From positions 13,622 to 77,621 of the forward strand of contig CAVXIU010000014.1 of NCBI GenBank assembly GCA_963761995.1: a DNA stretch of 64,000 nucleotides, given 5' to 3'. Below, piece by piece: positions 322 to 36,479 of the stretch. Source of the stretch: an uncultured delta proteobacterium. Its GTDB lineage: Bacteria > Desulfobacterota > Binatia > UTPRO1. The position numbers and the translations under genes are program-made. Every line of letters begins with the position of its first letter. The first letter of the stretch is position 1. A model generated the notes under the pieces. It made no database searches. It was not told the DNA's origin and was given only the letters and a program-made list of their open reading frames with translations.

Positions 322-323
322 TG

Positions 324-353
324 CGGCTAGCGCTCTCGCGCAAAGCAGCACTC
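324..353 (+). repeat. 30-bp palindromic cassette-boundary site #1
   Basis: TCGCGCAAAGCAGCACTC at 336-353, intergenic. Confidence 0.9.
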
Positions 354-377
354 ACGCGCGGATAGCCGATGAGCGGC

Positions 378-1393
378 TCAGCGGCCGCCGAACTGCGCGA
401 TCCAGGACGTGAGCAGGTGCCCCTCGTGCTCGGTGGGGCGGCTCAGGTAGTCCTTCTGGTCATCCGACGTGCCGGGCGCGTGCGCGATCAGCAGCCGCTG
501 GCCGGCGTAGTAGCTGTTGACGCGCGCCAGTTGCTCGGCGTTGAGCTTCGGCGCGCCCTTGGTCTTGGCCTCGCGCACGAGGTCGACCGGCATCTCGAGC
601 TCGGTCGCGATGTCTTCGAGCTTGTTGCTCGCGTCGGCCGCCAGCACGCGCGCGCGCAGGCAGGCCTGCTCTGCGTGGCGCATCTCGTGGTAGATCGTGC
701 CGATGATCTTGCCCATGCTGTCGGCGCCGAGCGTGGCGGGGCGGTCTGGGCAGCCAAGCTTCCACTTCTCGGAGTCGAACTCCGCGCTGGCCGCGCCGAG
801 ATACGTGTCGCGGAACTGCGGGAGGCCGACCCTGGCGAGGTGCTTGTTGCAGAGCTTCATCAACAGCGTCGCGCGCGCCGTCCCGCCGCTGGCCGCGAGG
901 AACTCGTCTTTGAGCGCGTTGCCGTCGGCGACGAACGCCTTGACGCTGGACGGCAGCATCAACCCGGTGAAGCCGAGCTTGGCGAACATCGCGTCGATCT
1001 GGCTCTCGCTGCGCCCGGCCGCGTCAGCCGCCGTCACGAGCGCGTGGGCGACGCGGTAGCCGCGCCGGCTCGAATAGATGGTGTCCGCCAGCCCCCCTCG
1101 CGCCCGACATCGCCTTCGGCCTGCTTGACGAGGTCGGCGCCGCCTGTCGTCTCGATCTTCTTCACGGGCGCCTCGTCGGCTTCCCACGCGGCTGTCTCGC
1201 GTGCCTTCTTGGCCGCCTCGTCCTCGTAGCGCGCGAGCACTTGCCCTAACGCGCGGTTACCGATCTGGCGCTGCCGCGCGACGACCGCGAAGGGCCCGAC
1301 CAGCGACGCCGCTTGCGCTGGAGGGACGCTCACCGCCTCCGCGGCCGGCGTCGAGTCCGCCACCTGCTCGCGAGCGGCAGCCATGGCGGCCAC
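378..1393 (-). CDS. Frameshifted HExxH zinc-metallopeptidase-like protein with an N-terminal QRxxGNxA low-complexity leader
   Basis: ORF 1034..1393 (QRQIGNRALGQVLAR) joins ORF 378..1187 (IYHEMRHAEQ) if one C is added to the C6 run at 1092-1097 (reads EGGLADTIY). Confidence 0.6.
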
Positions 1394-1507
1394 GCTAGCC
1401 GCAGGCGCCGCGCACGTCCAACCTCGCTCAGCTACATGCCGATCCAGATAGGTCCCGGAAGCGCTGCTTCACCGAGGTAGGCAGGCACTCACCCGTCTGC
1501 GGGAGCT

Positions 1508-1537
1508 GAGCGTTGCTCGTCGCGCAAAGGGGCACTT
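1508..1537 (+). repeat. Palindromic site #2
   Basis: TCGCGCAAAGGGGCACTT at 1520-1537. Confidence 0.85.
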
Positions 1538-1583
1538 TTGGTGGGGGTGTTCGCGGCGTCGCGCCCCGTTAGGTTTTTCGGCC

Positions 1584-2375
1584 GTGGACGTCGTTCAGGT
1601 GAGCGGGCTCAGGATCGTGTACGAGCGCGTGGGCGCGGGGCCGCCGCTCGTGCTGGTGCACGGCGCCGGTGACGATGGCCGGGTATGGCAGCCGCAGCTC
1701 GCGGCGCTGGCGGATGAGTTCACGGTGGTCGCTTGGGATGAGCCAGGCGCCGGGCGCTCGGACGATCTGCCTGAGGGCTTCGTCCTGGCGGATTACGCGG
1801 ACTGCCTAGCAGCGGTGATCGACGCGCTCGCGCTTGGCCCGGCGCACGTCGCGGGTCTGTCCTGGGGCGGGACCGTGGTTCTTGAGCTCTACCGGCGCTA
1901 TCCCGAGCAGGTGAGGACGCTGATCCTTGCGGACACCTACGCCGGTTGGAAGGGGTCGCTGCCGGCTGAAGAAGTGTGCGTCCGCGTCGAGGGTCTGCGC
2001 GCGATCTCGGCAGCCGGCGAGCGCTTTGACCCGCCGGGACTGTTCGCCGGCGAGCCTCCGGCTGAGTTCGCTTCGCTGCTTGTGGAGATGGCCGGGACGA
2101 GCCGGCCCGAGAGCTTGGCAGTGCAGGTGGCCGTGATGGCCGAGACGGACCAGCGGGCGCTGCTGCCTGCGATTGCCGTGCCGACCTTGCTGATCTGGGG
2201 CGAAGCCGACACCCGCTCGCCCCTCGGCGTCGCACGCCAATTCGCCGACGCGATCCCCGGCGCCGAGCTCGTCGTCCTCGCGGGAGCCGGGCACCTCAGC
2301 AACCTCGAGCGGCCGCGAGCATTCGCCGGTGCACTCCGGAGCTTCTGTCGCGATCACTCACCGCGTGAAGGCTGA
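1584..2375 (+). CDS. Alpha/beta fold hydrolase
   Basis: GPPLVLVHG, GLSWGG nucleophile elbow, C-terminal GAGHLSNLE. Confidence 0.92.
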   Translation: MDVVQVSGLRIVYERVGAGPPLVLVHGAGDDGRVWQPQLAALADEFTVVAWDEPGAGRSDDLPEGFVLADYADCLAAVIDALALGPAHVAGLSWGGTVVLELYRRYPEQVRTLILADTYAGWKGSLPAEEVCVRVEGLRAISAAGERFDPPGLFAGEPPAEFASLLVEMAGTSRPESLAVQVAVMAETDQRALLPAIAVPTLLIWGEADTRSPLGVARQFADAIPGAELVVLAGAGHLSNLERPRAFAGALRSFCRDHSPREG

Positions 2376-2390
2376 CCGCGCGGGATCGCC

Positions 2391-2420
2391 CAGTGGCGCG
2401 TCTCGCGCAAAGCAGCACTC
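2391..2420 (+). repeat. Palindromic site #3
   Basis: TCGCGCAAAGCAGCACTC at 2403-2420, 28 bp after the hydrolase stop. Confidence 0.9.
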
Positions 2421-2675
2421 GCCTGGCTCGGCTCTGCTCGGCTCTTCGTCCTCGTGCAAGCGGGCGTCTCAGGCACCCGGGCGGAGAGGCTTGTTGTCGA
2501 TCCGAGCGAGCGTCTGTGGCGGGCGACGCGAGACGCTCGCATGCACCGCGTCGCGGCAGCGGCGCCCCCGCCTCCGCTGACGTCGCTTCCGGTCGTCTCT
2601 GGCGACTTCGCTTAGACGCCGGCTCTCACACCGAGACGTGGCTTACGCCGGGCTTGGCTCAGCGGGTCTTTGCGG

Positions 2676-3476: not shown

Positions 3477-3581
3477 CAATCCCCCGTCCGCAGACTGCGT
3501 TTGCGCCGAACGAGCGTATCCGTTCAGCGCAGCAGCACGCTCGCGCCGGACGACAAGCAGGCGTATCGCATGCGCCGTTCT

Positions 3582-3611
3582 CACTTCCGCTTGTCGCGAA
3601 AAGCAGCACTC
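3582..3611 (+). repeat. Palindromic site #4
   Basis: CCGCTTG-TCGCGAA-AAGCAGCACTC, core at 3594-3611. Confidence 0.9.
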
Positions 3612-3910
3612 GTGCGCGCCGCAGTCGCTGGGCTGGCCGGCTATCGGCGGAACCCCCGCAGGATGTCGCCAAAGGAAGCCAGGAGCTCGGTCGCCCCGAG
3701 GGAAATGATCATCCGCTCCGCCCTTCAGCTGGCACGCCACCGCCGCGTCCGCGTGACCCAATCCCGGGTGCCCGTGTGGCTCTTGACTTCCGCGATTGGA
3801 CGGAGTCGAATGGCATCAAGACGCTGATCGTCCTGCGCCGTTCGGGGGCGAGGAGGTGATGCAGCCCGCCGGTGCAGCCGGAACTCATTCTTGCGAGCAA
3901 GGAGGGGCTG

Positions 3911-4324
3911 ATGATCCCCGAAAGCCGTGCGGACGTAGATCGCGACATGGAGGCGACGCTTGGGCTGGTGCCCGAGTTCTTCAGGCAGGTTCCCGACTAC
4001 CTGATCCCCACCGAGTGGGCGAGCTTCAAGAGCCTCGAGCTCTCCGACCAGACCGCGATCCCGAACAAGTACAAGGAGCTGATCGGGCTCGCCGTATCCG
4101 GCGCGACGCGGTGCCGCTACTGCTGCTACTTCCACACCGAGGCGGCGCGGCTCTTCGGTGCCAGCGAGGACGAGATCACCGAGACGGCGCTGATCGCGAA
4201 GAACACGATGGGCTGGAGCACGTATCTCAACACGCTCCAGTTCGACTACGACCAGTTCGTCGAGGAGTTCGACCAGGTCACGACGCACGTGCGTGACCAG
4301 ATGGCCGCGGGCGCGCCCGCCTGA
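3911..4324 (+). CDS. Carboxymuconolactone decarboxylase / AhpD-like family protein
   Basis: KYKELIGLAVS...CRYCCYFH (CxxC) motif; GGAGG RBS at 3901. Confidence 0.88.
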   Translation: MIPESRADVDRDMEATLGLVPEFFRQVPDYLIPTEWASFKSLELSDQTAIPNKYKELIGLAVSGATRCRYCCYFHTEAARLFGASEDEITETALIAKNTMGWSTYLNTLQFDYDQFVEEFDQVTTHVRDQMAAGAPA

Positions 4325-4355
4325 TTCGCCCCGGCGGCCGGCCTGCTGCGTCGAC

Positions 4356-4700
4356 TCAGCGCCGGTCGCCGTTCGGCGGCGATGCGGACAGTCGCTGACG
4401 GGCCCGATCGAAGTCGGCCAGGACCTGCTCCAGCAGCTCGATGGCGCTCGCAGGAGCGTCGGGAGAGGCGCGCATCGCATCGAGCGCCAGTCGCGCGCCG
4501 GCGACCAGGGCGGAGAGCTCTTGCCCCGTTGCCGTGACCGTGAAGACGTTCTCACGAGCCCGATCCACTCGCACAACGCGATTCTGCCGAATCCGCGCTA
4601 CCGGCGCCGGGCGCTCAGTGCCGCTTCCAGCACTGGCCGGGGGCCGGCGTCGAGCCCGCCGCCGCTGACTCTCCTCCCCGATCGCTCGATCGAACGCCAA
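4356..4700 (-). CDS. Small hypothetical protein (start uncertain, probably shorter)
   Basis: C-terminal part (RVDRARENVFTVTATGQELSALVAG...) reads like a natural protein; no family recognised. Confidence 0.4.
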   Translation of the reverse strand: MAFDRAIGEESQRRRARRRPPASAGSGTERPAPVARIRQNRVVRVDRARENVFTVTATGQELSALVAGARLALDAMRASPDAPASAIELLEQVLADFDRARQRLSASPPNGDRR

Positions 4701-4720
4701 CGGTGTAGCGTTCGCCGGGC

Positions 4721-5734
4721 GTGCCAGATGTCGAGGTGAGCACTCGGATCAGGGCCCGCCTGAGGGAGCTGTTCGAGCGTCATCGTGTCGTCGACCGGGC
4801 TCGCCTGGATCGCTTCTATGACTCCGAGCGCGGCTACTACCCGCCTGAGGAGGCGGGCGATGAGCGCGACCACTTCGCGATCTGCCTGGCATCGGTCGAC
4901 GGCGAGCTGTACTGCGAAGGCGACCACGAGCGGCCGTTCGCGCTCCAGTCGATCTCCAAGGTGTTCGCCTACGCTCTCGCGCTGGCCGACAACCGCCGGG
5001 AGGACGTCCTCGCCCGCGTCGGCGTCGAGCCCAGCGGCGACGCGTTCAACTCGATCGTGTTCGACGAGCGATACCACCGTCCGTACAACCCGATGGTCAA
5101 CGCAGGCGCGCTGGTGACCACCGACCTTGTGCACGGCGCGAGCGGCGAGCGCAAGATCGAGCGACTGCTCGGCGTCATGCAGGCATGCGCGGGCGACACC
5201 GGCCTGGAGGTCAACGAGCGGACGCTCGCGCGCGAGCTGCGCCACGCCGATCGCAATCGCGCCACGGCGTACCTGATGCGCGCTGAGGGGATGCTCGACG
5301 GGGACGTCGAGGAGCTGCTGGCGCTGTACCTGCACCAGTGCTCGGTCGAGGTGACCTGCGCGCAGCTGGCGGTCATGGCAGCCACGCTCGCCAACGGAGC
5401 GGTCAACCCCTTCACCGGCGAGCGCGCGCTCCCACGCGACAGGGTCCGCGACCTTCTGAGCGTCATGTACACGTGCGGTATGTACGACGCCGCCGGGCAG
5501 TGGGCGTACGAGGTCGGCGTGCCGGCCAAGAGCGGCGTCAGCGGAGGCATCCTCGCCGTCGTCCCAGGCAAGATGGGCATCGGCGTCTTCTCGCCAGGTC
5601 TGGACGTCTACGGCAACAGCGTGCGCGGCACAGGCGTCTGTTACGAGATCGCCACCCAGCTCGGCGTCCACGTCTTCGCCGCGGAGGACGAGGACGCCCT
5701 CCTCGGCCCCGGGACGCCGGCGAGCGAGCGCTGA
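4721..5734 (+). CDS. glsA: Glutaminase A
   Basis: FALQSISKVF (SxxK), EPSGDAFNS, NPMVNAGAL, MYTCGMYD, PAKSGVSGG motifs. Confidence 0.95.
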   Translation: MPDVEVSTRIRARLRELFERHRVVDRARLDRFYDSERGYYPPEEAGDERDHFAICLASVDGELYCEGDHERPFALQSISKVFAYALALADNRREDVLARVGVEPSGDAFNSIVFDERYHRPYNPMVNAGALVTTDLVHGASGERKIERLLGVMQACAGDTGLEVNERTLARELRHADRNRATAYLMRAEGMLDGDVEELLALYLHQCSVEVTCAQLAVMAATLANGAVNPFTGERALPRDRVRDLLSVMYTCGMYDAAGQWAYEVGVPAKSGVSGGILAVVPGKMGIGVFSPGLDVYGNSVRGTGVCYEIATQLGVHVFAAEDEDALLGPGTPASER

Positions 5735-5832
5735 GCCACCAACGTGATCAGGGTGGACGACTGTCGCGTCTCGGGGTATTCAGGCGTGGATCCGAGCGGC
5801 GACGCGTTCTCAGCTCGGGTCGCGCGTTCATG

Positions 5833-6657
5833 TCACGCCGCGCGAGGTTCCGCTGGCGCGCGGCCTTCGAGCGTGCCCCAGCTCTGGATCAGGGTGAAGG
5901 TCGTGCCCCATCTACCCGGCTCGGCCAGCTCGGCCTCGGCCTCTTGGCGGAGCAAAGCAAGCTCGTCCGCCGGGAGGACCTCTAGCAGGCGCGATTCGAG
6001 CGCGACGCTGAACTGAAGCAGCATGCGCAGGTAGGGATGCCCCGGCTTGAGCGCGATCACGTGTGCGTCGACCTCCGGCTCCTCGATACCGATCTCGCGG
6101 AGCAATTGGGGAAGTTCGCGACCGGCTTGACCGCCCAAGCCGGCAAAGATGTTGGAGATCAGACGGATCAGACGCTCGGCCGCGGTGGCAGGTGGATTGA
6201 AGTGCCACGAGGCGACATCCCACTCCTCGAGGATCAGTGAGCCACCGGGCTTGACCAGGCGTCGGTGCGCGGCCACCTGTTCACGTCCGCGCCCGAGCGG
6301 AGCGATCTCGTAGCGAGCATGAACGAGATCGAACGATTCCGGCTCCAGGCTGCTGTCGAAGAGATCATCGAGGACCAGTTCGACGTTGGTGATTTCTTCG
6401 TTCTCCAGGAACGACCGAGCGACGTTGAGCATGCTCTCGTCGATGTCGGTGCCCACCACCTGACCGGACGGACCGACCCAGTCGCTGAGGATTCGAAGCC
6501 AGCCCAGGGCTCCGCAACCGACGTCCTGAGCGCGTCGGCCGGATCCGCTCCCAAGCTTCGATAGAAGCTGCCGACCGCTTGGCTCCCACACCAGCGACTG
6601 CAGCCGTAGGCGATCCAGTTCCGACGACTGGTCAGCAAGCAGGTAGTTCTCCATCAC
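5833..6657 (-). CDS. Class I SAM-dependent methyltransferase
   Basis: DVGCGALG motif I, VVGTDID, FDLVHAR, LVKPGG. Confidence 0.9.
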   Translation of the reverse strand: MMENYLLADQSSELDRLRLQSLVWEPSGRQLLSKLGSGSGRRAQDVGCGALGWLRILSDWVGPSGQVVGTDIDESMLNVARSFLENEEITNVELVLDDLFDSSLEPESFDLVHARYEIAPLGRGREQVAAHRRLVKPGGSLILEEWDVASWHFNPPATAAERLIRLISNIFAGLGGQAGRELPQLLREIGIEEPEVDAHVIALKPGHPYLRMLLQFSVALESRLLEVLPADELALLRQEAEAELAEPGRWGTTFTLIQSWGTLEGRAPAEPRAA

Positions 6658-6996
6658 AACACCTTCGTGTTGGGGGGCAGAAATGGTTCAGCGAGCGACG
6701 GGACGCTCCGGGCGAGTCTGGGAGATCCAGCGCATCGAGCACTCGGCGCGGTAAGTCGTGTCGAGGAAGCTGGCGGCGATGGCCACGCAACTCTGCCGCG
6801 TCCCGGCGCGGAGATCATCAGAGGTACCACTGAAATCCGCGACCGACTCCACCGAGCACCGACGGCCACCTCACCGAGCGAACCCGTGGTGTTTGGATGA
6901 CGACGGTCCCCGCCTCGGCCGGCTCGGACGCCTCGTCGAGGCGGGCCGAGCCGGCTGGCCGGGAGCACCGTGAGCGCGCGCATCGCTCCTGTCTGC

Positions 6997-9561
6997 CTAC
7001 TCCTTCAGCCCGATCGCGTCCACAGGCCGAGTTCGGAGCGCGAGCCGGGTCGGGAGCAGGCTTGCCACGAGGCCGAGCAGCGCGGTCCCGCCGAGGAGGC
7101 CCGCCAGCAGCAGCGGCTCGACGTCGGGGAGCGGCGTGCCCGTCAGCGCCTTGCTGAATGGCAGCAGTGAGGCCGCGGCGATCGCCGCGCCGAGCCCGAT
7201 CCCGACGATCACCACGAGCCCGGCCTCCCAGCGCGCCATCCGCGCGAGCTGCCGGGGCGTGGCGCCGACCAGGCGCAGGAGGGCGAGCTCGCGCCCGCGG
7301 GAGAGGGCGATCATCGCCAGCGTGTTCACCGCGGCGATCGCGGTGAAGACGAAGATCAGCCCGGCCAGCACCCGGTTGAGCCACACCACCATCCGCTGCT
7401 TGGCGCCATCGGCGCTGCGCAGCGCGGCCCCGCCGGCCACCCGGACGCCCGGGTGGGCGGCGGCCACCTGCCGCAGCCCGGCCTCGGCGCGGGCGAGCGC
7501 GCCCGGCTCGGTCCGCACGAGCACGGCCGCGGCGAGCGGGTCGGTCGCGTGCGGCGCGGCGAGCGCCCGCGGGAGCAGGAACTCGCCGAACCCGAGCGAG
7601 CGCTCGTAGGTCGCGACGACCCGCAGGCGGGCCCGCGTGCCGTCGCCGAGCGCGACGGCGACCCGGTCGCCGACCGCGACGTGCGCGAGCTCCGCGCGCC
7701 GCGCGCCGAGCGCAATCGCGTTGCCGTGCAGGTCGGCGAGCGAGCCCGAGCGGACGTCGAGGTCGAGCGTCCGCGTCAGCCCGGTCGCGTCGGCCATCTG
7801 CGCGGCCTCCGACACGTATCCCGAGCCGAGGCTCTCGTTGCCGAGCGGCAGGATGCCGGTCGAGCTGATCCCGGTCGCAGCCGCGACGCCCGGCAGCGCC
7901 CGGGCCTGCTGCACCGCGCTCTCGGGCACACCGCCCGGAGCGCTGAGCACGAGCTGGGCGAGCTGCCGGTCGTCCGTCTGGCGCGCTGTCTCGTGGCTCT
8001 GGGTCGTGCCGGAGAACAGCAGCGTGCCGCCCATCGCGACCGCGAGCACGAGCGGCGTCATGGCGGAGGCGACCCGCCGCGGAGCCGTGCGCGTCGCGGC
8101 GGTGGCGAGGAAGCCGCCCACGGGCGAGACGCGTGCGACGAGGCGCCCGGGCACCACCGAGGCGGCGCGCGCCACCAGCGGACCGAGCAGCGACACGGCG
8201 ATCACGAGCACGAGTGCCACGGCGCCGGCGGCGGCGATCGCGGTGTCCGGGTCCCGCGACGCCAGCGCCACGTTGAGCGCGATCGCACCGCCGGCGGCCG
8301 CGGCGAGGCCGGCCACGAGCCGCCGCCGCCCGATCATGCGCGGCTCGACCGCGGCCTCCTGCAGCGCGCGGGTGGGCGCGACCCTCGCGGCTCGGCGCGA
8401 CCCGGCCCAGGCGGCGACCAGCGCGGCGAGCGCGGTCGAGACGACGGTGACGAGCGCCGGCAGCACGCCCGCGGAGACCGCCATCCCCTCGGGCGCGAGC
8501 CCACGCTGCGAGAACGCGTCGATGAGGGCATGGGCGAGCGCGACGCCCGGGAGGTAGCCCGCCGCCGACGCGGCGAGTGCGAGCACGATCGCCTCCCAGC
8601 GCAGCATCCGGCGAACCTGTCGCGGCGTGGCGGCGATCGCCCGCAACAGCGCGATCTCGCGCTCGCGGAGCTGGATGGCCAGGCCGAGCGTGCCGGCGAT
8701 CACGAACAGCGCGATGACCAGCGCGAGCACGCCGAACATGCCGGTGACCGCCATCAGGCCCTCGCGGGCGTCGGCGAACTCGAGGAACTCCGGGCCGCCG
8801 CGACGATCCCCGGTGAGGACCGAGACACCCGGCCCGGCGACGCGGCGCGCGCCCGCGGCGACCGCCGCGGTGTCGGCGCCGCGCTCGGTGAGGAGCGCGA
8901 TCGCGTCGGCGCGGCCGGGGTGGCCGGCGAGGCGCGCGGCCTCGGCGTCGGACACGAAGACCGCCGCCTGGCGCTCGAGCGCCGACGCCGACCCGGCGAT
9001 GCCGACGATCGTGTACGCCCGCGCGGGGGCGAGCGACGCGAGCCGCACATGCGCGCCGACCCGCAGGCCGCCGCGCCGGGCGAGCCCCGCGTCGACCACG
9101 AGCTCCCCGGGCCGCGAGGGTGCGCGGCCCGAGCGCAGCGCGAGCGGGGTCAGCTCGGCGCTCGACCAGCCGTGGGCGAAGGTGTCGTGCCCATCCGGGC
9201 CCGGCACCGCCCCGTCGGCCCCGAGGACCTGCGTGCGGACGGAGACGTCCTGCACGACGCGGCGGACGCCCGGCACCGCGGCGAGCCGTCCGGCGAGCGC
9301 GGAGGAGATGCGGACGCGCTCGGACAGCAGCACGTCCTCCGAGTCGATCTCGTTGACCCGATGATGGAGCGTCTGCTTGCCCGCCACGACGACGGGGGCG
9401 CCCGCGTACCGCTCGGGCGTCGGCGCGCTGCGCACGCCGGAGGCGAGCAGGACGCCGGACGCGGTGACGAGCACCGCGGCGAAGAAGAGGGCGGCGGCAG
9501 CGCCGGCGAAGGCGCTGCGGTGACCGCGGATTCCGAGGAGCGCGAGGCGGAGCATGCTCAC
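6997..9561 (-). CDS. FtsX/MacB-family ABC transporter permease (two FtsX domains)
   Basis: Multiple TM segments; REIALLRAIAATPRQV and RELALLRLVGATPRQL motifs. Confidence 0.92.
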   Translation of the reverse strand: MSMLRLALLGIRGHRSAFAGAAAALFFAAVLVTASGVLLASGVRSAPTPERYAGAPVVVAGKQTLHHRVNEIDSEDVLLSERVRISSALAGRLAAVPGVRRVVQDVSVRTQVLGADGAVPGPDGHDTFAHGWSSAELTPLALRSGRAPSRPGELVVDAGLARRGGLRVGAHVRLASLAPARAYTIVGIAGSASALERQAAVFVSDAEAARLAGHPGRADAIALLTERGADTAAVAAGARRVAGPGVSVLTGDRRGGPEFLEFADAREGLMAVTGMFGVLALVIALFVIAGTLGLAIQLREREIALLRAIAATPRQVRRMLRWEAIVLALAASAAGYLPGVALAHALIDAFSQRGLAPEGMAVSAGVLPALVTVVSTALAALVAAWAGSRRAARVAPTRALQEAAVEPRMIGRRRLVAGLAAAAGGAIALNVALASRDPDTAIAAAGAVALVLVIAVSLLGPLVARAASVVPGRLVARVSPVGGFLATAATRTAPRRVASAMTPLVLAVAMGGTLLFSGTTQSHETARQTDDRQLAQLVLSAPGGVPESAVQQARALPGVAAATGISSTGILPLGNESLGSGYVSEAAQMADATGLTRTLDLDVRSGSLADLHGNAIALGARRAELAHVAVGDRVAVALGDGTRARLRVVATYERSLGFGEFLLPRALAAPHATDPLAAAVLVRTEPGALARAEAGLRQVAAAHPGVRVAGGAALRSADGAKQRMVVWLNRVLAGLIFVFTAIAAVNTLAMIALSRGRELALLRLVGATPRQLARMARWEAGLVVIVGIGLGAAIAAASLLPFSKALTGTPLPDVEPLLLAGLLGGTALLGLVASLLPTRLALRTRPVDAIGLKE

Positions 9562-10298
9562 GCCCCCAGGTGCGTCATGCGCTCGGCGACAACGTCCGCG
9601 GTGGGCGCGTCGTCAGCGGCCACGATCGCGCCGTCGGCGAGGTAGAGGACCCGGTCCGCATAGGCCGCGGCCCGTGGGTCGTGCGTGACCATGACGACGG
9701 TCTGGCCGACGGCGTCGACGACGTGGCGCAGGAGGTCGAGGATGTCGCCGCCCGTGCGCGTGTCGAGCGCGCCGGTCGGCTCGTCGGCGAACACGACATC
9801 CGGCCGCGTGAGCAGGGCGCGGGCGATCGCGACGCGCTGCTGCTGGCCGCCCGAGAGCTGCCCGGGGCGGTGCTTGAGGCGCTTCTCGAGCCCGACCCGC
9901 TCGACGATCTCGCGCTTCCAGGCACGGTCGGGGCGTTGGCCGGCGAGCCGCAGCGGAAGCCCCATGTTCTGCTCGACCGTCAGCGACGGCATGAGGTTGA
10001 ACGCCTGGAAGATGAAGCCGACGCGCTCGCGCCGCAGGGCGGTGCGCTTGGCCTCGCTGAGGCCGCCGACGTCGACGCCTCCGAGCCGCACGTTGCCGGA
10101 GGTGGGTGTATCGAGCCCGGCCGCGAGGTGGAGGAACGTGCTCTTGCCGGAGCCGGAGGGGCCCATGACGGCGGTGAAGCTGCCGCTGCGGAGCCCGAGG
10201 GACACGTCGTCGAGTGCGACGACGGCGCCTTCGCCGCGGCCGTAGACCTTGCTGACGTGGTCGAGCCGGACGGCGTCGTTGATTGCGGTGATGGTCAT
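9558..10298 (-). CDS. ABC transporter ATP-binding protein (LolD/MacB type)
   Basis: GPSGSGKST Walker A, LSGGQQQRV signature, VFADEPTG Walker B; start MTITAINDAV. Confidence 0.95.
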   Translation of the reverse strand: MTITAINDAVRLDHVSKVYGRGEGAVVALDDVSLGLRSGSFTAVMGPSGSGKSTFLHLAAGLDTPTSGNVRLGGVDVGGLSEAKRTALRRERVGFIFQAFNLMPSLTVEQNMGLPLRLAGQRPDRAWKREIVERVGLEKRLKHRPGQLSGGQQQRVAIARALLTRPDVVFADEPTGALDTRTGGDILDLLRHVVDAVGQTVVMVTHDPRAAAYADRVLYLADGAIVAADDAPTADVVAERMTHLGA

Positions 10299-10409
10299 GC
10301 CGACAGCGTCATCCGTCGGCGGCTCGCGCGGTATGGCCCTGCCCGGTGTCCGGCGCTCCCCGCTCCATGGGCGATTGCAGGTGCGGGCAGCCGCACTTAG
10401 GCTCGCCCC

Positions 10410-12140
10410 ATGCGCGCCGCATCGCGGCATCCGCCGGGGGTCTGGATCCTCCTCTGGGGGGTGACGATCGCGGCCGAGCTGGGAGCGCTGCTGCCCGCCT
10501 TCGCCGGCTCCGGCCCCGCGCTCCCCGCGTGGGACATCGCGTTCCGCCTCGTCGGCGGATCGTTCGCGGCCTGCGGGCTCATCGCCTGGCGGCGGCGACC
10601 GCAGAACCGGACCGGGCCGCTGATGGTCGCGACGGGGCTGAGCTTCCTCGCCAGGCCGCTGTTCGACCAGTTCGACGCCCCCGTCATGCAGACGCTCGCG
10701 CTGCTGCTGGGGGACATCTGGATCGTGCTGCTGGTCGTGCTGCTGCTGTCGTTCCCCAGCGGCCGCCGGCTGCGGTCCGCGACCGACCGCGCACTCGTGG
10801 GCGCCTTCGCCGTCGCCTACGTCGTCCTGGGCGTCGTCTGGCTGCTGTTCCTCGACGTGCCCGGCAACCTGCTGTCGGCGTTCCCCGATGCCGACGTCGC
10901 CGACGCGATCGACACCGTGCAGCGCGCGCTCGGGTTCTGCGCCTCTGTGGCGACGTTCGCGGTGCTCACGCACCGGTGGCTGGTCGCGACGACGCCACAG
11001 CGGCGCGCGCTGCTGCCGAGCTTCGCCGGCGGGGTGAGCCTGCTGCTGTTCGCTGCACTGCTGGCGAGCGACATCGTGACCGGCGAGCCTCACCCGCTGC
11101 GCGGGCTCACGTGGGCGTGCATCATCGGGTTCCTGCTCACGCCTGCGGCGTTCCTCGCCGGCCTGCTGCAGACCCGGCTCGCCCGCGGCGGCTTCGCGGA
11201 GCTGGTCGTCGAGCTCAGAGGGCTCCGTGGCGGGGCGCTGCAGGCCGCCCTGGCGCGGACGCTGCGCGACCCGACGCTGGTCCTCGCCGGCTGGCTGCCG
11301 GAGTACCAGGCCTACGTCGACGCCGAGGGCCGGGTGGTGTTGCCGCCGGCCCCGGACGGCGACCGCCGCTCCACGCCGATCGAGCGCGACGGCCGCCCGG
11401 TCGCCATGCTCGTCCACGACCGCTCGCTCGACGACGACCCCGAGGCGCTCGAGGCGGTCTGCGCCGCCGCCGCGCTCGCGCTCGAGAACGAGGCGCTGCA
11501 GACCGAGTCGCGCGCACGGCTCAGCGAGCTGCAGGCCTCGCGCGCGCGGATCGTCGAGGCCGGCGACGCTGAGCGGCGGCGGCTCGAGCGCAACCTCCAC
11601 GACGGCGCGCAGCAGCGGCTGGTCGCCGTCGCGATGCAGCTGCGGTTGATCCGCGCGCGCGCAGCCGAGCCGGCCGAGGTCGAGGCGCTCGCAATCAAGG
11701 CGGGCGATGAGCTCGCCTCCTCGCTCGACGAGCTGCGCGAGCTGGCCCGCGGCATCCATCCCGCCGTCCTGGACCACGGGCTCGGCGCGGCGCTCGAGTC
11801 GCTCGCGGCACGCTCGCCGGTGCTCACCTCGCTGACCGTCGACGTGGCTCGTCCGCTGCCCAAGCCGATCGAGCTCGCGACGTACTTCGTGGCGTCGGAG
11901 GCACTCGCCAACGTCGCCAAGTACGCGCAGGCCACCGCGGTCACGCTGCGCGTGGCCCGTAACGGCGCGTCGGTCAGCGTCGAGATCGCCGACAACGGCG
12001 TCGGCGGTGCCGACCCGACACGCGGCTCGGGGCTGCGCGGCCTGGAGGACCGCGTGGCGGCGCTCGACGGGGCGTTGCGCGTGAGCAGCCCGGCCGGCGG
12101 CGGCACGACGGTGACCGCGGAGCTGCCGTGCGCGTCGTGA
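10410..12140 (+). CDS. Membrane sensor histidine kinase (HisKA_3 / NarX type)
   Basis: N-terminal TMs; ERRRLERNLHDGAQQRL H-box; DNGVGG...GSGLRGL...GGGT HATPase. Confidence 0.93.
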   Translation: MRAASRHPPGVWILLWGVTIAAELGALLPAFAGSGPALPAWDIAFRLVGGSFAACGLIAWRRRPQNRTGPLMVATGLSFLARPLFDQFDAPVMQTLALLLGDIWIVLLVVLLLSFPSGRRLRSATDRALVGAFAVAYVVLGVVWLLFLDVPGNLLSAFPDADVADAIDTVQRALGFCASVATFAVLTHRWLVATTPQRRALLPSFAGGVSLLLFAALLASDIVTGEPHPLRGLTWACIIGFLLTPAAFLAGLLQTRLARGGFAELVVELRGLRGGALQAALARTLRDPTLVLAGWLPEYQAYVDAEGRVVLPPAPDGDRRSTPIERDGRPVAMLVHDRSLDDDPEALEAVCAAAALALENEALQTESRARLSELQASRARIVEAGDAERRRLERNLHDGAQQRLVAVAMQLRLIRARAAEPAEVEALAIKAGDELASSLDELRELARGIHPAVLDHGLGAALESLAARSPVLTSLTVDVARPLPKPIELATYFVASEALANVAKYAQATAVTLRVARNGASVSVEIADNGVGGADPTRGSGLRGLEDRVAALDGALRVSSPAGGGTTVTAELPCAS

Positions 12141-12778
12141 TCGCCGACGACAACCTGATCGTCCGCGACGGGCTCGCCGCGCTGCTGCGCGAGGCCAACG
12201 TCGAGGTCACCGCGCAGGTCGGCGCGGTCGACGACCTGCTGCGCGAGGTCGACCGCCACGCGCCGGACGTCGCCATTGTCGACGTCCGCATGCCGCCCAC
12301 GCATACCGACGAAGGCCTCCAGGCGGCGCTCGCGATCCGGGCCCGGCACCCGCGGGTGGGCATCCTGATCCTCTCGCAGTACGTCGAGGTGGGCACCGTC
12401 AACCGCCTGATCGAGCAGGGCGCCGAGGGCCTCGGCTATCTGCTCAAGGACCGTCTCACCGAGCTCGAGGACTTCGTGGCCACGTTGCATCGCGTCGCCG
12501 AGGGCGGCTCGGCGCTCGACCCGAAGGTGCTCGCGACCCTGCTCGAGCGCGTACCCGCGGCGGATCCGCTATCTGCACTCACCCAGCGCGAGCGCGAGGT
12601 GCTGGCGCTGGTCGCCGAGGGCCGGACGAACCGCGGCATCGCCGAGCGGCTGGTGATCAGCGAGGGATCGGTGCAGAAGTACGTGACGGCGATCTTCGCG
12701 AAGCTCGGCCTGCCCGCGGGCGAGGCCGACCACCGCCGCGTCCTCTCGGTGCTCGCCTACCTGCGCGCCGGGCCCTAG
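12128..12778 (+). CDS. NarL/LuxR-family response regulator
   Basis: VVIADD, DVAIVDVRMPP, LTQREREVLALVAEGRTNRGIA. Confidence 0.95.
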   Translation: MRVVIADDNLIVRDGLAALLREANVEVTAQVGAVDDLLREVDRHAPDVAIVDVRMPPTHTDEGLQAALAIRARHPRVGILILSQYVEVGTVNRLIEQGAEGLGYLLKDRLTELEDFVATLHRVAEGGSALDPKVLATLLERVPAADPLSALTQREREVLALVAEGRTNRGIAERLVISEGSVQKYVTAIFAKLGLPAGEADHRRVLSVLAYLRAGP

Positions 12779-12810
12779 TCGGGGAGCGAGCCGCCGCCAG
12801 ACCGGTCCCT

Positions 12811-12840
12811 GGCTGCGGCTCCTCGCACAAAGGGGCACTC
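12811..12840 (+). repeat. Palindromic site #5
   Basis: TCGCACAAAGGGGCACTC at 12823-12840. Confidence 0.85.
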
Positions 12841-14645: not shown

Positions 14646-14675
14646 GCGTCCTGCTTCTCGCGCAAAGCGGCACTC
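14646..14675 (+). repeat. Palindromic site #6
   Basis: GCGTCCTGCTT-CTCGCGCA-AAGCGGCACTC. Confidence 0.9.
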
Positions 14676-15856: not shown

Positions 15857-15886
15857 GACTGTGGCCTGTCGCGCAAAGGAGCACTT
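15857..15886 (+). repeat. Palindromic site #7
   Basis: TCGCGCAAAGGAGCACTT at 15869-15886. Confidence 0.85.
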
Positions 15887-16697: not shown

Positions 16698-16727
16698 GGC
16701 TGCTGCTCCTCGCGCAAAGCAGCACTC
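16698..16727 (+). repeat. Palindromic site #8
   Basis: TGCTGCT-CC-TCGCGCAA-AGCAGCA-CTC; an inverted TTGCGCGAGAGC follows ~25 bp later. Confidence 0.9.
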
Positions 16728-19514: not shown

Positions 19515-19544
19515 CTGCCGCGCGTCTCGCCCAACGCGACACTC
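19515..19544 (+). repeat. Palindromic site #9 (compensatory variant)
   Basis: CGCGT-CTCGCCCA-ACGCG-ACACTC; the arms covary relative to the consensus GCTT/AAGC. Confidence 0.7.
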
Positions 19545-20563: not shown

Positions 20564-20593
20564 CGGTGCTGCTCTTCGCGCAAAGGGGCACTC
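20564..20593 (+). repeat. Palindromic site #10
   Basis: CGGTGCTGCTC-TTCGCGCA-AAGGGGCACTC. Confidence 0.9.
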
Positions 20594-21238: not shown

Positions 21239-21268
21239 CGCAGATCCTCATCGCGCAAAGCAGCACTC
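21239..21268 (+). repeat. Palindromic site #11
   Basis: TCGCGCAAAGCAGCACTC at 21251-21268, 20 bp after the GNAT stop. Confidence 0.9.
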
Positions 21269-23358: not shown

Positions 23359-23388
23359 GAGTGCTCAGATTCGCGCAAAGCAGCACTC
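23359..23388 (+). repeat. Palindromic site #12
   Basis: GAGTGCTCAGA-TTCGCGCA-AAGCAGCACTC; the outer 7 bp pair perfectly. Confidence 0.92.
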
Positions 23389-24352: not shown

Positions 24353-24382
24353 CGCTGTCGCTTCTCGCGCAAAGCAGCACTC
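24353..24382 (+). repeat. Palindromic site #13
   Basis: GCTGTCGCTT-CTCGCGCA-AAGCAGCACTC. Confidence 0.9.
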
Positions 24383-25028: not shown

Positions 25029-25058
25029 GCCTACTGCTTGTCGCGCAACGCAGCGCTC
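25029..25058 (+). repeat. Palindromic site #14
   Basis: CTGCTT-GTCGCGCA-ACGCAGCGCTC. Confidence 0.8.
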
Positions 25059-25807: not shown

Positions 25808-25837
25808 CGCTTTCGCGTTTCGCGCGAAGAGGCACTC
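25808..25837 (+). repeat. Palindromic site #15
   Basis: TCGCGCGAAGAGGCACTC at 25820-25837. Confidence 0.75.
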
Positions 25838-26852: not shown

Positions 26853-26894
26853 GGCTGCCGCGTTTCGCGCACAGCGGCACGCACAGCGGCACTC
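26853..26894 (+). repeat. Palindromic site #16 with tandem-duplicated right arm
   Basis: GCCGCGTT-TCGCGC-ACAGCGGCAC-GCACAGCGGCACTC; the 11-mer GCACAGCGGCA occurs twice. Confidence 0.75.
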
Positions 26895-27055: not shown

Positions 27056-29091
27056 TTAGGTCGCCGGTACCTCCACGACGACGCGGCGTCCGCCGATCTG
27101 GCCGTCGATTCGGAGCTTGGTCGCGCCTGGGCCAAACCAGACGCCGCTGACCTGGACCTGGCCGAAGGAGCCGGGGACGACGAGGGCAACGTTGGCATCG
27201 ATCGTGCTGGTCTCGAAGTCGTAGCGGCCGTGGCCGGTCACGCCGACGTCTTCGACGAAGCGGGCGTGCGCGAGATCGACGGACACGCCGGTGTCCGTCG
27301 TCGGCGGAGTTGACCACGCCGCCACGCAGGCCGACGCCGTGATCGGTCGGTCCGGCGATGAAGACGCGCCGGAACGCGTCGACGACCGTGGCGGCTGCCG
27401 CGGCGGCGAGCCGGCGGTCGGCGCGCGTCGACTGGTCCTCGTCGGAAGCGGGCAGCGCCGGTCGGAGGCGCGTCGCTCGTGCGTGCGAACCGACCGACGC
27501 CGGGGAATCTCGAAGGGCGCGCCGGGGAGCGCAGCTCGCGTCGCCCGCGGCCCCGGTCAGGAAGAACCGCTGGACAAGGCCGACGGCGCATTCGGAGTTG
27601 ACGCCGAAGATGGTGACATGCCCGGAGGAGCCGATGTCGATGAGCCGGTTGCTCGGGAAGACCTTGCGGACGGCTCCGGCGATCTCGCCGGTGCAGGAAG
27701 ATGTCGTACTCGGCGGTGAGCACGAGCGCGGGGACGCCGCGGGCGGTCGCGCCGTCCGGAACCGGTCGCTCGCGCTCGTGCGAGGGCGACGGCCAACCGA
27801 TGCACGGGTCAGGCAGCCAAGCGCCGAGCGGCGCCGGCGATACCCAGCCGTCGAGGAGAACGGTGCGAACTGCCGCCGACCGAGGCTCCTACGGGCGGCC
27901 TCGAACTGCCTCTGGCGCTCCTCGAGGGACGCCCGCGGGTCCCACTGGAAGGGCTGGTCGCTGCAGAAGCGGGCGGCGTTGAGGCCGGCCGAGAAGATCT
28001 CCGGCGGATCGGGCGGGAAGGTGACGAGCGGCTCGGCGGCGAGCCGCAACAGCGGCGCGGGATCGCCGCGGCGCAACGCTCGCGCGGCGGCCGCCACCTC
28101 GCTCTGCGCCGTGAAGCCTCCCGAGTCGCCCAAGAGCCGCTGGATCAGCGTCGCTTCGTCGACGTGGACCGTGTGCGGGTTCCCGAGCGAGTCAAACGCG
28201 GACCCGTCGACCGGCGCGGCGCGCAGGCGCTTCGCCAGCCACGCCAGCTCGGCGGCCGGGTGACGATGATCGCGGCGGCAGTGCTCGGATCGCCGGCAGA
28301 TGCGTGTCACCAGCCGCGGGAGGTTCCGGGCGACCTGTGTCGCCCACGGGTCGAAGTCGACGAGCGGGAACGGGGAGTCGAGCACCACCGAGCCCATACG
28401 CCTCGGATACCGGACCGCGTAGGCCTGGGCGTCGGCGGCGGCGTAGGAGAAGCCGTAGAAGTCAAAGCGCTTGACGTCCAGGGCGGCGCGGACGGCCTCG
28501 ATGTCCTGCGCGACGTCCGCGCTGCCGTAAAGGTCCGACCGGGTCCCGAGCTGGGCGCCGCACGCGCGGACCGCCTCGTAGCGGCTCGCCGCCGGGCTGC
28601 TGTACCGACGGGCAGTCGATGGCCTGCGACAGGCCGGTGCCGCGATAGTCGATCAGGACGACGTCGCGGCGGTCCCGAAGCGGCCCGAAGAGGTAGGACA
28701 CGAACCCCTCGCCGCCGGCCTGCGTGGCCGAGACCCCCGGGCCTCCGAACGTGACGAAGATCGGCCGTCCCGGCACGGCCGCGGCGTCCGTGTGCGGAAA
28801 CACCGCGAAGAAGATCCCGATGCTCTCGCCGTCCGGTCGATCGCGATCGAGCGGCACGGAGACGCGGCCGCACAGCGCGCCCGGCACCTCGTCACACGGA
28901 CGGAGGTCCGTGCCCGACAGGGCGGGCGGAGACGCGGGCACGCCGTCCGCCGCGGCGGAGCGGATCAGCGACGCGGCGTTCCACGGACGCGGCGCGGTCA
29001 CATCCGGCGGCCGTGCGGAGGGCCACGCCGCCGCCTCGACAGCGGAGAAAAGGAGGACAAACGCGACCAGCGGAGACAAGGTCCAGCGCAT
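27056..29091 (-). pseudogene. Secreted alpha/beta hydrolase (tripeptidyl-aminopeptidase / TAP-like), multiply frameshifted
   Basis: CGRVSVPLDR, FGGPG, DYRGTGLS (ORF 28462); YGFSYA elbow and MGSVVLDSP; VLTAEYD; SSGH; C-terminal domain in ORF 27056. About five frame changes. Confidence 0.75.
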
Positions 29092-29119
29092 TACAGTCCT
29101 TTCGCGCGAAGGCAAACTC
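29090..29119 (+). repeat. Palindromic site #17 (divergent)
   Basis: AGTCCTT-TCGCGCG-AAGGCAAACTC; the CCTT/AAGG pairing is compensatory. Confidence 0.6.
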
Positions 29120-29466
29120 GACGCTACGCCCGGGCGCCACGCGAGTCAAGACACGACGAGCGCGCCCCCTACCCTCGCCGTCTGCGCCGGCGCCGCGAGC
29201 CCGCGTTCGCGCTCAAGCAACCATGCGCTCCCTGCGACGCTCACGTCAGCGGAGGTCGATCCATGACACTTCGTGCTCGTCCCTTGCAGGCGTCTGGTTT
29301 GGGCTGGGCGTGACACTCGCTTGCAGCTGCGAAGTGGAACCGTGATCCGCTCGTTGATCGTCCCGGCCGTCATGCAGCCGCTCGGCGAAGCGCCCCTGGA
29401 ATTTGGGGGGACACAGGGGCCCGCTTGCGCGGGCCGCTGTGATCGAGCGTGGGTGCTCCTCGGGCG

Positions 29467-29892: not shown

Positions 29893-30232
29893 GAGGGGGC
29901 TCTCCTCGGGTGGTTGGTGGGTGAAGCGACGCGGGAGGCGCTGCTGGGACGGCCGACCAGGCCGCCGAAGGTGTCGTGCGAGACGGGCTCGAGGCGGAGT
30001 GACAGCTCACGCACGCGCGGCAGTCCGTAGGCGTGGTGGGGGTTGTACGGCGGGACGAGCTGGGACGTGGTGGGCATGGCGGCCTCCTGAGCGGTGCTGA
30101 GTGGACGCTGGGGAGGCTTGCGCCCGCCGGTAGGGCCGCCGGTGGGAAGCCCGGTAAACGCTGGTAGTCGCTCCTTGCGGTCACCGCTCGCGCGCGGGTA
30201 GGGTCGACCTAGGCAAGCGCTGCCGGGGTGGC

Positions 30233-35145: not shown

Positions 35146-35447
35146 GCCAGCCCCGCGACCCAGTACGCGCCGACGCCCACCGCCCCGTGAGAGCGCACGT
35201 GACGAGCCCCCGCCACCCGTCTCGCTTCCGAACCACGACCGCCCGTCCGTCCGGGGTAGCGCGCGAGAGCGACGCTAGCTCCTGGATTTCGACGAAGGAA
35301 ACCCTCTTCAGCTCCCCGCTCGACGCACTGGGCGTTGTCGCGCTGACAATCCGCGGTAGTCCACGCCGACGCGTGCCCCGCAGCCGCTTCGGCTCGTAGC
35401 AGCCGCTCGTCCTGTTGGAACCCAAGCGCGCTGTCGCAATGCGCGAC

Positions 35448-35507
35448 GAGCGGGCGTCTCAGACGACACTCGGGAGACGCCCGCTCTGGACGACAAGCAG
35501 GCGTGTC
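35448..35507. repeat. Second-family palindrome: perfect 13-bp inverted repeat GAGCGGGCGTCTC / GAGACGCCCGCTC plus GGACGACAAGCAGGCGT
   Basis: Read directly; related units at 2452-2540, 3548-3567, ~26930-27020 and 42489-42526. Confidence 0.7.
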
Positions 35508-35521
35508 GCGCGGTGCGCCCT

Positions 35522-35551
35522 CGCTCCTGCAATTCGCGCAAAGCAGCACTC
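35522..35551 (+). repeat. Palindromic site #18
   Basis: TCGCGCAAAGCAGCACTC at 35534-35551. Confidence 0.9.
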
Positions 35552-35604
35552 ACCAGCGCGGCCCCCGGATCTACGTTCGCGTCTGCTGCGAGAGCGTGCG
35601 CGTA

Positions 35605-35862
35605 CTACACGCGGTAGAGGAACGTGTAGGCCGCGGACGGACCGCTCTGGGCCCACTCCGCGAGGCAGTAGCGGCAGGTGCTGCTGTCGTCGGAAGGCAC
35701 ATCGACCGTGCTCGGCGGGCGACCCTCGACGACCTCGGCGTCGATGCGAATGCCGTGCAGGGGGCCGTCGACCAACACGGCCGTGATGGTCGGCCCGCGC
35801 ACTTGGTCGGAGCCGCGCGGCCCGAACGTCAAGTGCTTGCGGAGCATCTGCGCACTCGTCAT
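35605..35862 (-). CDS. Small hypothetical protein
   Basis: 85-aa ORF (AVLVDGPLHG...PPSTVDV...CRYCLAEW) with natural composition. Confidence 0.65.
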   Translation of the reverse strand: MTSAQMLRKHLTFGPRGSDQVRGPTITAVLVDGPLHGIRIDAEVVEGRPPSTVDVPSDDSSTCRYCLAEWAQSGPSAAYTFLYRV

Positions 35863-35876
35863 CTCGTCGTGCGCTC

Positions 35877-36155
35877 CTATGCGGTCTCGCCGGCGTCAGC
35901 GATGTGCGACCGCGCCGCGGCGACTTTGCCCCGGTCGGCGTTCAGCCCCTTGGCGAGGTCGCCGGTCGTGCAAAGCGGGTGCTCGTTCAGGTATTTGCTG
36001 ACGCGCTCCTCTATGTCGTCCTTATGCAGTCGCGCGGTAGCTCGACGACTGTGGGCGCGACGCGCGGTCGCTCGACGCGCGGAACGTCGCGGTACCACTG
36101 GCGCTGTCGGCCGCAGTGGGGTGGGTGCGTCGTCCACGGTGCGATGCGGTTGCAT
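35877..36155 (-). CDS. Small protein with a C-terminal winged-HTH-like segment
   Basis: IEERVSKYLNEHPLCTTGDLAKGLNADRGKV; GGAGG RBS; a paralogous 5' end starts at position 58 on the minus strand. Confidence 0.55.
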   Translation of the reverse strand: MQPHRTVDDAPTPLRPTAPVVPRRSARRATARRAHSRRATARLHKDDIEERVSKYLNEHPLCTTGDLAKGLNADRGKVAAARSHIADAGETA

Positions 36156-36416
36156 TGCGGTGACCTCCCGACCCTCGTGGAGGGTGTCGCGCGAGAGGAA
36201 GAGGGAACGAGACCCAGACGCGTGAATCGACTCGGCTCGGCCCCGCGGGTCTCGATCATGGCCTCGAGCTCCGCTCCTCGGCGCGGTCGCGCTTCGGTGG
36301 CTTTCGGCTCCGAGGCTGAAGTCCTGCCCGCAGGGTCAGCCACCACCCACAGTACTCCCTTCCGGGCCGATAACAAGCAAGCGCCTGCGGCCGCCTGGAT
36401 AAGAAGCAACAGCGGC
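36094..36416. repeat. Copy 2 of the ~320-bp duplication
   Basis: Matches 1-321. Confidence 0.95.
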
Positions 36417-36449
36417 CGAGATGGTCGTAGTCGAAGCGCTGCGCGCGGC

Positions 36450-36479
36450 GAGTGCTCCTATCGCGTGGAGGGGGCACTC
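36450..36479 (+). repeat. Palindromic site #19 (last in the array)
   Basis: GAGTGCTCCT-ATCGCGTGGA-GGGGGCACTC; near-perfect arms. Confidence 0.8.

Follow-up and report, generated by a model that had tools for sequence, protein, structure and literature searches.

The integron is the textbook example of a system that stacks and reshuffles single genes. Its cassettes are co-oriented and bounded by attC sites, 57–141 bp long and folded as a single strand (R''-L''...L'-R', with RYYYAAC/GTTRRRY ends), while the integrase gene stands at the head of the array, where the promoter Pc lies beside the divergent intI gene and attI. Complete integrons have been reported absent from Actinobacteria (Cury et al. 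2016, PMC4889954). In the dif modules of Acinetobacter plasmids (PMC13141974, PMC6449649), short arm-spacer-arm sites bound modules that are shuffled between replicons; these pdif sites copy the host dif site in an 11-6-11 layout with distinct XerC and XerD arms, rely on host XerCD and alternate in orientation (C and D modules). Here we describe an array of directly repeated 30-bp sites, and the gene units between them, in a 64,000-nt stretch of DNA (hereafter the window; C14:13622-77621) from assembly GCA_963761995.1, contig CAVXIU010000014.1, deposited as an uncultured delta proteobacterium. The assembly measures 7.70 Mb in 18 contigs, of which the main one, C6, accounts for 7.0 Mb. Throughout, G### denotes the genomes or metagenome-assembled genomes (MAGs) compared, with G000 the source assembly, C# a contig and L### a fetched locus.

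We favor, at a probability of roughly 0.6, a cassette system akin to integrons or dif modules that has a site of its own and is served by a minimal, Xer-like recombinase. An earlier annotation, hereafter the sequence-only reading, had proposed integron- or pdif-like cassette accretion with a site family of its own, and the clustering of the sites, the permuted order of the units and a linked recombinase family support that proposal.

In the mechanism we propose, about 36 kb of the window would belong to a 47-kb array in which mobile gene units meet at recombination sites of about 30 bp. Each such site would consist of two arms, a degenerate one on the left (CGCTGCYGCTT) and a conserved one on the right (AAGCAGCACTC), around a central n-TCGCGCA. 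The site would be used as double-stranded DNA, with a tyrosine recombinase probably cutting to the left and to the right of its center. Since that center is asymmetric and identical in every site, a putative one-site circle could enter any other site in one orientation only, which would explain why all sites of an array share a polarity no matter which way the genes run. When two direct sites recombine, the unit between them would be excised, and if exchange takes place at the center, a unit would begin with a right arm and end with a left arm. The likeliest enzyme is a Xer-like recombinase of 233–245 amino acids (aa) without a core-binding domain, whose gene would itself be one unit, directly upstream of a site.

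An array of site-bounded units

The array spans C14:2360-49155, beginning 11 kb left of the window and ending at about 35.5 kb within it. A search of the window for the 18-nt core, TCGCGCAAAGCAGCACTC, with up to three mismatches gave 16 matches against 0.14 expected, every one at a start listed by the sequence-only reading, and a 30-column weight matrix trained on 166 good sites scored these same 16 at 23–46 bits. Its claim of a single strand holds as well, both for the 16 window matches and for the 20 sites of the whole array, all of which are on the + strand.

As that reading anticipated for mobile cassettes, the order of genes between sites varies: a given unit can recur in different arrays, orders and genomes, and homology between its copies stops in the core. 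One unit, comprising an 85-aa open reading frame (ORF) on the − strand plus flanks, lies at 35534..36416 on the + strand of the window and has a second copy at window −560..321. The two copies (C14:49155-50037 and 13061-13942) are 96.5% identical over 885 bp, and both begin exactly at core base 0. A hydrolase unit on contig C9 is likewise duplicated, at 95.6% identity, with homology from the first core base. In both the C14 and the C9 duplications, the left arms of the copies differ. The site at 35534 gives the reciprocal picture, since its 56-nt left part and core are 93% identical to a C9 site that has a different downstream unit. Units common to several genomes at 92–98% identity also end at the core, for example G042:C19 10119-11004 and C9 28682-27797, and three units that stand in the order C-A-B on C9 stand as A-B-C on G042:C19.

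To locate breakpoints systematically, we collected 54 homology blocks (at least 88% identity over at least 300 bp) within and between genomes, with identities of 88–99%. Of their 200 ends, 36 fall between −15 and +25 of a core start, against 1.6 expected and a maximum of 7 in 200 randomizations. This pile-up places recombination within the core. The ends peak at base 0/+1 and again at bases +14 to +23, the two-peak pattern expected if exchange took place inside sequence common to all sites. Right-arm variants stay with the downstream unit (AGGAGCAGTG in all three copies of the hydrolase unit) and long left parts stay with the upstream unit, which argues for a crossover in TCGCGCAAAG.

Arrays also carry traces of inversion and fusion. 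G041 contains oppositely oriented blocks with inverted copies of a unit; at C4:43926-50400 (L119), about seven opposite-orientation sites lie inside a − array together with an inverted copy (96.5%) of the contig-start unit, in what looks like an inversion between sites. The sole recombinase paralog of G041 sits 3 kb beyond this block. On the reverse strand of C9 at about 58,430 (+ strand about 22,340), a deletion has removed a site together with the initial 60 nt of the unit that follows, fusing two units whose intact junctions are found in G042:C19 and G047:C3. Site loss of this kind would account for multi-gene intervals such as window 3612..12810, a 9.2-kb stretch without a site that encodes CMD, a glutaminase, a methyltransferase, an FtsX permease, a histidine kinase and a response regulator.

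A short recombinase linked to the site

The candidate enzyme matches PF00589 at 97–104 bits over a protein of 233–245 aa. Aligned with XerD (1a0p), it preserves GLR..GKG..HxLRH..LGH..Y and the full RKHRHY catalytic set. The alignments start at about residue 132 of XerD and 112 of XerA, leaving some 50 N-terminal residues, and these first 50 residues are highly conserved and basic. An AlphaFold model built on a 19-row alignment (mean predicted local distance difference test score, pLDDT, 69) has a confident catalytic domain at residues 50–205, leaves residues 1–46 unfolded and shows no folded N-terminal domain; its top Foldseek matches are XerA, XerH, a staphylococcal integrase, IntI4 and XerD. 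NCBIfam models for Xer, IntI and invertases all score far below their cut-offs. From alignment and model, we class the protein as a Xer-like tyrosine recombinase consisting of the catalytic domain only, and not as an IntI. The family is large in metagenomes, where at least 7,984 of 8,000 scored candidates pass 1e-20 under no annotation other than "site-specific recombinase XerD", and a tblastn search of 72,556 plasmids returned no match at 1e-20.

The sequence-only reading had pointed to the left of the window as the place for a tyrosine recombinase. None was found there, but a putatively dedicated family does adjoin the site in other genomes and metagenomes. Mapping of PF00589 placed the short recombinase in or beside arrays in G045 (three copies), G041, G048:C8, G048:C4, G047:C6 and G047:C3, and nine of the 8-kb loci chosen only by exact core match contain its gene. 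The stop codon lies 25–45 nt before a co-oriented site in L005, L055, L026 and L046, likewise in G045 and G048:C8. More broadly, the left arm followed by TCGCGC(A/G)AAG stands co-oriented 16–53 nt past the stop in G045 (three copies), G048:C8, L005, L055, L026, L031, L033 and L046, and co-oriented sites flank the gene on both sides in L152, L159 and L228.

The association also appears when the protein is the starting point. Among 80 soil metagenome contigs chosen by protein similarity alone, 31 carry relatives that are 78% or more identical and whose genes are followed by 90 nt or more of sequence. TCGCGCAAAG, with at most one mismatch, occurs 16–53 nt after the stop in 16 of the 31, where chance would give about 0.005 per locus, and a few more have two-mismatch variants. 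Across lineages the right arm varies (AAGCGACAGCG and similar) and TCGCGC is constant. In G045c, G047:C6, L033 and L031, the left arm and TCGCGCAAAG are retained beside an unrelated right arm, again arguing for exchange within the center.

Could the sites be genuine recombination sites served by a different enzyme, either host XerC/XerD, as for dif modules and integrative mobile elements exploiting Xer (IMEX), or an unlinked integrase? We consider this unlikely, although it has the source assembly on its side. G000 has no intact array-type recombinase, two Xer-grade PF00589 matches occur in every genome examined, and the only tyrosine recombinase adjoining an array in G000 is an unrelated 448-aa integrase of phage type (C9:79398-80741). 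An HTH_17/excisionase gene precedes the integrase gene, which stands 600 bp away from the first C9 site and diverges from the array, as in an integron. However, the C9 integrase has no homolog near the G041, G042 or G045 arrays, and we rejected the integrase with its excisionase as the general array enzyme. The near-identical inverted arms and GC-rich center suit a single recombinase, whereas the quoted pdif sites have two different arms, and the short recombinase is tied to the site on many independent contigs. The end of C9 (78697-80741) carries the integrase with a double HTH_17/excisionase gene, and a 150-nt piece of the integrase gene, at 93% nucleotide identity, lies inside the array region at C9:63767-63915.

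Several observations weigh against a cassette system run by the short recombinase. The genome that gave us the array, G000, is without an intact copy of the array-type gene; it has a 75%-identical paralog (C3:23008-23703) with no site nearby, and fragments on C16 and C11. This C3 type is the sole family member in both G041, within the array region, and G042, far from the arrays, and these two genomes have the largest arrays. Since a cargo gene would also have a site after it, the link between gene and site shows constant association and not catalysis. In addition, some homology blocks end away from sites, the gene calls are crude, and the host organism of the array contig is uncertain, the small contigs being likely mis-binned.

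A repeat search around the C3 recombinase yielded no site family, and a "left arm + TCG" motif after C3-type genes was dropped as a terminator-like hairpin. One further C3-type gene stands alone on the 1.2-Mb L147 (ENA contig_23308), in a context resembling a defense island (KwaA, GmrSD, PIN, DUF4365) and with zero canonical sites within 10 kb. Site-like palindromes also occur 20–120 nt before the recombinase start codon (L084/G045, L134/G048:C8, L055, L005 and G000:C3 at about 23,800). They combine a normal left arm with another center (TCACGGAG, or CCCGGGTG in the C3 type) and may be operators or decayed sites. Many short recombinase copies in G045, G047 and G048 (L115, L134-L137) are frameshifted; in these long-read MAGs, assembly error may be the cause rather than decay.

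Anatomy of the site

We examined the site in 197 distinct copies drawn from all sequences gathered. Information content is restricted to positions −12 to +17. Core positions 0–17 are near-invariant, in part since selection used those positions. The left arm, with consensus CGCTGCYGCTT at 50–80% per position, is a degenerate inverted copy of the right arm, and 8 of 11 consensus positions are mirrored (TGCYGCTT and AAGCAGCA). The mean complementarity of the two arms is 5.71/11 in real sites against 5.76/11 in shuffled left/right pairings; there is no co-variation, and the position pair −6/11 is, if anything, anti-correlated. The 11-8-11 palindrome of the sequence-only reading is therefore overstated: mirroring is real in the consensus, but the left arm is degenerate and individual sites average 5.7 complementary positions of 11. 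The absence of RYYYAAC/GTTRRRY ends was seen correctly, with conservation over only 30 bp and no GTTRRRY.

A folded, attC-like hairpin was considered and rejected, as arms that seemed compensatory in single sites proved, over the 197 sites, no more complementary than shuffled pairs. We read the site as an inverted-repeat core site (arm, asymmetric center of 7–8 bp, arm) and not as a conserved fold. No Rfam family matches it, and a scan of the sites for T-run terminators gave a chance-level result.

These properties bear on the suggestion, which we rate as improbable, that the 18-mer serves the units as a functional signal (for instance an operator, a structural element or an RNA element) and that the breakpoints stem from homologous or illegitimate recombination at a short repeat. 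A core of just 18 nt could owe its strict conservation to any protein that binds it, the off-site ends of some homology blocks fit such a view, and the palindromes with other centers upstream of recombinase genes are possibly operators. Yet the orientation of the site is constant whatever the direction of the genes, terminator and Rfam family are both lacking, and the arms do not show the co-variation that a folded RNA would need. The 20-fold enrichment of breakpoints falls in 18 nt of identity, too short for efficient RecA recombination, and a signal would leave the constantly adjacent recombinase gene to be explained.

Gene orientation was counted in single-gene units over all arrays. By crude gene calls, 19 genes run in the direction of the site and 18 against it, and therefore there is no integron-like promoter logic. 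This count, together with the protein models, makes it very improbable that the array is a classical integron or a CALIN (an attC cluster without integrase) with an unusual attC. Mostly small units, accessory or unknown genes and sites homogeneous within an array, as in sedentary chromosomal integrons, do speak for that identity. Against it, the IntI models TIGR02249 and NF011946 score the short recombinase at only 59–65 bits (cut-off 265) and 48–56 bits (cut-off 435), aligning only its last 60 or so residues, and the C9 phage-type integrase reaches 42 bits in the same test. The 30-bp site lacks the attC ends and covarying arms, and the recombinase gene is embedded in the array, co-oriented with it.

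Distribution and host

Within G000, the core word with up to three mismatches has 20 matches on C14, every one of them +, and 12 on C9, every one of them −, besides three of chance grade on C6. At 18 bits or more, the weight matrix finds 20 + sites on C14, 13 − sites on C9 and one + site at the contig end of C2, and none elsewhere, including the 7.0-Mb C6. The motif is thus limited to two or three small contigs, with a single orientation per array; the genome-wide scatter in both orientations that the sequence-only reading named as evidence against itself is not seen. Short, partly palindromic and intergenic though the site is, its absence from the 7-Mb main contig, its one orientation per array and the lack of conservation past 30 bp refute a dispersed repeat of the repetitive extragenic palindrome (REP), bacterial interspersed mosaic element (BIME) or miniature inverted-repeat transposable element (MITE) kind, to which we assign next to no probability.

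Arrays of the same kind exist in other genomes. An exact core scan of one genome per species found the word mainly in MAGs labeled Solirubrobacteraceae, Thermoleophilaceae, Solirubrobacterales or Actinomycetota, with several per contig in some. Whole-genome scans gave 31 matches in G041, 45 in G042 and 18 in G047, against 0–7 per genome for a control word, and the matches are clustered and locally co-oriented. The G041 array (C4:518-72902) falls into −, + and − orientation blocks, G042 has four arrays and G047:C3 holds one, and the complete 4.18-Mb chromosome of G045 has an array at 3,396,813-3,411,228. The 102 units in all fetched arrays have a median length of 1,514 bp and range from 232 to 9,229 bp. 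The 11-mer TCGCGCRAAGC, counted in 81 genomes of G045's order, barely exceeded a control word and is too unspecific for the purpose. Array flanks are rearranged between genomes, with no clear common insertion locus.

The organism that carries the window array is less clear, as bin G000 looks mixed. The 16S gene of C6 reads, in our judgment of its sequence, like a Myxococcota-type gene, and the small contigs are compositionally nearer to Thermoleophilia MAGs. C14 and C9 share 92–97% nucleotide identity with units of a Solirubrobacteraceae MAG, and their tetranucleotide profiles score 0.998 to Thermoleophilia regions against 0.988–0.993 to C6. The sdh operon (window 60054-63265), by contrast, is nearest to the bin's genus relatives (65% amino-acid and 70–76% nucleotide identity), against 41% for Thermoleophilia MAGs. 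The 40 relatives of the bin are without arrays, a result that mis-binned small contigs would explain and that is uninformative if the array contig is mis-binned. A WhiB motif search, used to type the small contigs, gave no match. The sequence-only reading placed the system in a phylum where integrons are rare; that statement now depends on Thermoleophilia MAGs being the best matches, and mis-binning of the contig is a possibility.

Sites and genes of the window

The sequence-only reading listed 19 sites, of which 16 are strong. In the left part of the window, these begin with site 1 (324..353, core 336), which has an exact core at 27.8 bits, and site 2 (1508..1537, core 1520), a GGGG variant with three mismatches that still reaches 30.4 bits. 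Site 3 (2391..2420, core 2403) has an exact core and 40.0 bits, and site 4 (3582..3611, core 3594; 40.1 bits) is a long form, whose GGACGAC...AAGCAGGCG element lies some 50 nt further upstream. Beyond the 9.2-kb interval come site 5 (12811..12840, core 12823; 27.7 bits), site 6 (14646..14675, core 14658; 39.7 bits), site 7 (15857..15886, core 15869; 32.9 bits) and site 8 (16698..16727, core 16710), again with an exact core, at 44.7 bits.

The strong sites continue with site 10 (20564..20593, core 20576; 39.9 bits) and with three exact cores, namely site 11 (21239..21268, core 21251; 36.4 bits), site 12 (23359..23388, core 23371; 36.4 bits) and site 13 (24353..24382, core 24365), which at 46.2 bits marks the top of the range. 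Scores then fall through site 14 (25029..25058, core 25041; 28.6 bits) and site 15 (25808..25837, core 25820; 27.9 bits) to site 16 (26853..26882, core 26865; 23.5 bits). The last strong site of the array is site 18 (35522..35551, core 35534), a long form with an exact core and 42.7 bits. All of these, and the three sites below, are on the + strand.

The remaining three listed sites fared differently. Site 9 (19515..19544, core 19527), just ahead of the nitrilase domain start, has four mismatches and 11.6 bits; since 4 Mb of C6 contains only two matches of 10 bits or more, we regard it as a real but degraded site, weak yet significant. The site at 29090..29119 (core 29102) is doubtful, its five mismatches and −1 bit being chance level. 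Equally doubtful is 36449..36479 (core 36461), which has no matrix match, follows the duplicated unit at a distance of 45 nt and differs from the GGGG variant by three substitutions and one insertion. It is at best a decayed terminal site.

Long-form sites occur in the window at 3545-3611 and 35475-35551 and on C9 at 18262, 34900, 37141 and 73155. Their additional element, GGACGAC followed by the right-arm-like AAGCAGGCG about 50 nt upstream of the core, is also found upstream of short recombinase genes in other genomes and might serve as an additional binding site or as a promoter facing outward.

Sites fall between the called ORFs, confirming their intergenic placement, and the earlier count of single-gene intervals is about right, within the limits of crude gene calls based on third-position GC. 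The description of the cargo as typical of cassettes also stands. Units of the window encode two alpha/beta hydrolases, a luciferase-like monooxygenase, a cupin, a beta-lactamase-fold protein, a nitrilase-family hydrolase and a GNAT protein, as well as an RTX-repeat protein, a WD40 protein and many proteins without a Pfam match. Third-position GC is about 0.75–0.88 in array genes (window 1-36500) against 0.92–0.96 in the multi-gene block at 6997-12778 and in flanking genes, which fits foreign or weakly expressed cargo. ARAGORN found zero tRNA genes in the window.

Comparison with known systems

The broader claim is about an even bet: that soil Thermoleophilia, and perhaps other Actinomycetota, harbor a widespread and undescribed gene-capture system, in which a catalytic-domain-only recombinase, itself a mobile unit, moves one-gene units at a 30-bp TCGCGCA site into arrays of up to tens, with no promoter logic. 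The searchable literature, whose coverage is incomplete and thus gives no proof of novelty, contained no description of the site or the system. Were the claim true, this would, with a recombinase family of at least 8,000 metagenomic clusters at 90% identity, be among the most abundant cassette systems in soil, taking the place of integrons in a phylum without them. Gene stacking by site-specific recombination would have arisen more than once, here with a far simpler enzyme and site. The arrays would offer access to a large reservoir of accessory genes, many of them without a known function, and thousands of "XerD" annotations would be re-labeled. A 30-bp site with a 240-residue recombinase would also be a compact candidate tool for high-GC bacteria.

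Two familiar arrangements resemble parts of this design. The sfx sites of the R64 plasmid shufflon, recombined by Rci, are also asymmetric, since conservation covers the central region and only one of the two arms. The shufflon, however, inverts segments of one gene between inverted sites, whereas the array sites are direct repeats with whole genes between them. Tandem accretion of integrative or cis-mobilizable elements likewise gives direct repeats, through a regenerated att core, and most of its units carry no integrase of their own, as in the array. The array differs in its smaller units (median 1.5 kb), in having tens of them, in the absence of a tRNA or gene target and in a 30-bp site without arm-type sites.

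The closest relatives of the recombinase in sequence and fold belong to the archaeal XerA/dif and the XerH/difH systems, in which one protein acts on a near-palindromic site. Those enzymes possess a core-binding domain (about 100 residues in canonical Xer) and resolve chromosome dimers at a single site, whereas the array has tens of sites around accessory genes. Dif modules share with the array their short sites, module shuffling and a need for matching central regions, which we propose for the array as well. Here, though, the sites are direct repeats and do not alternate in orientation, and for that reason the array is not a pdif system. Its arms are inverted copies of one sequence, its center is 7–8 bp (TCGCGCA), its location is chromosomal, a putatively dedicated recombinase gene is linked to it and its site sequence is unlike those in the published pdif table.

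Measured against integrons, the array differs in enzyme, site and layout. IntI has an extra (I2) domain, and the short recombinase has neither this nor a core-binding domain. In place of the long, folded attC there is a 30-bp inverted-repeat core site, and nothing in its sequence suggests single-strand recombination. Array genes point either way, no attI is recognized, and the recombinase gene lies inside the array as a co-oriented unit with sites on both sides. Without IntI, attC, co-oriented genes or an integrase at its head, the array is not an integron in the strict sense. The likeness is nonetheless extensive and takes in sedentary chromosomal integrons and CALINs (PMC4889954): both have small, mostly one-gene units between directly repeated tyrosine-recombinase sites, sites that are homogeneous within an array, accessory or unknown cargo, and units shared and reordered between genomes. 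As in integrons, the units of the array are mobile and bounded by the sites.

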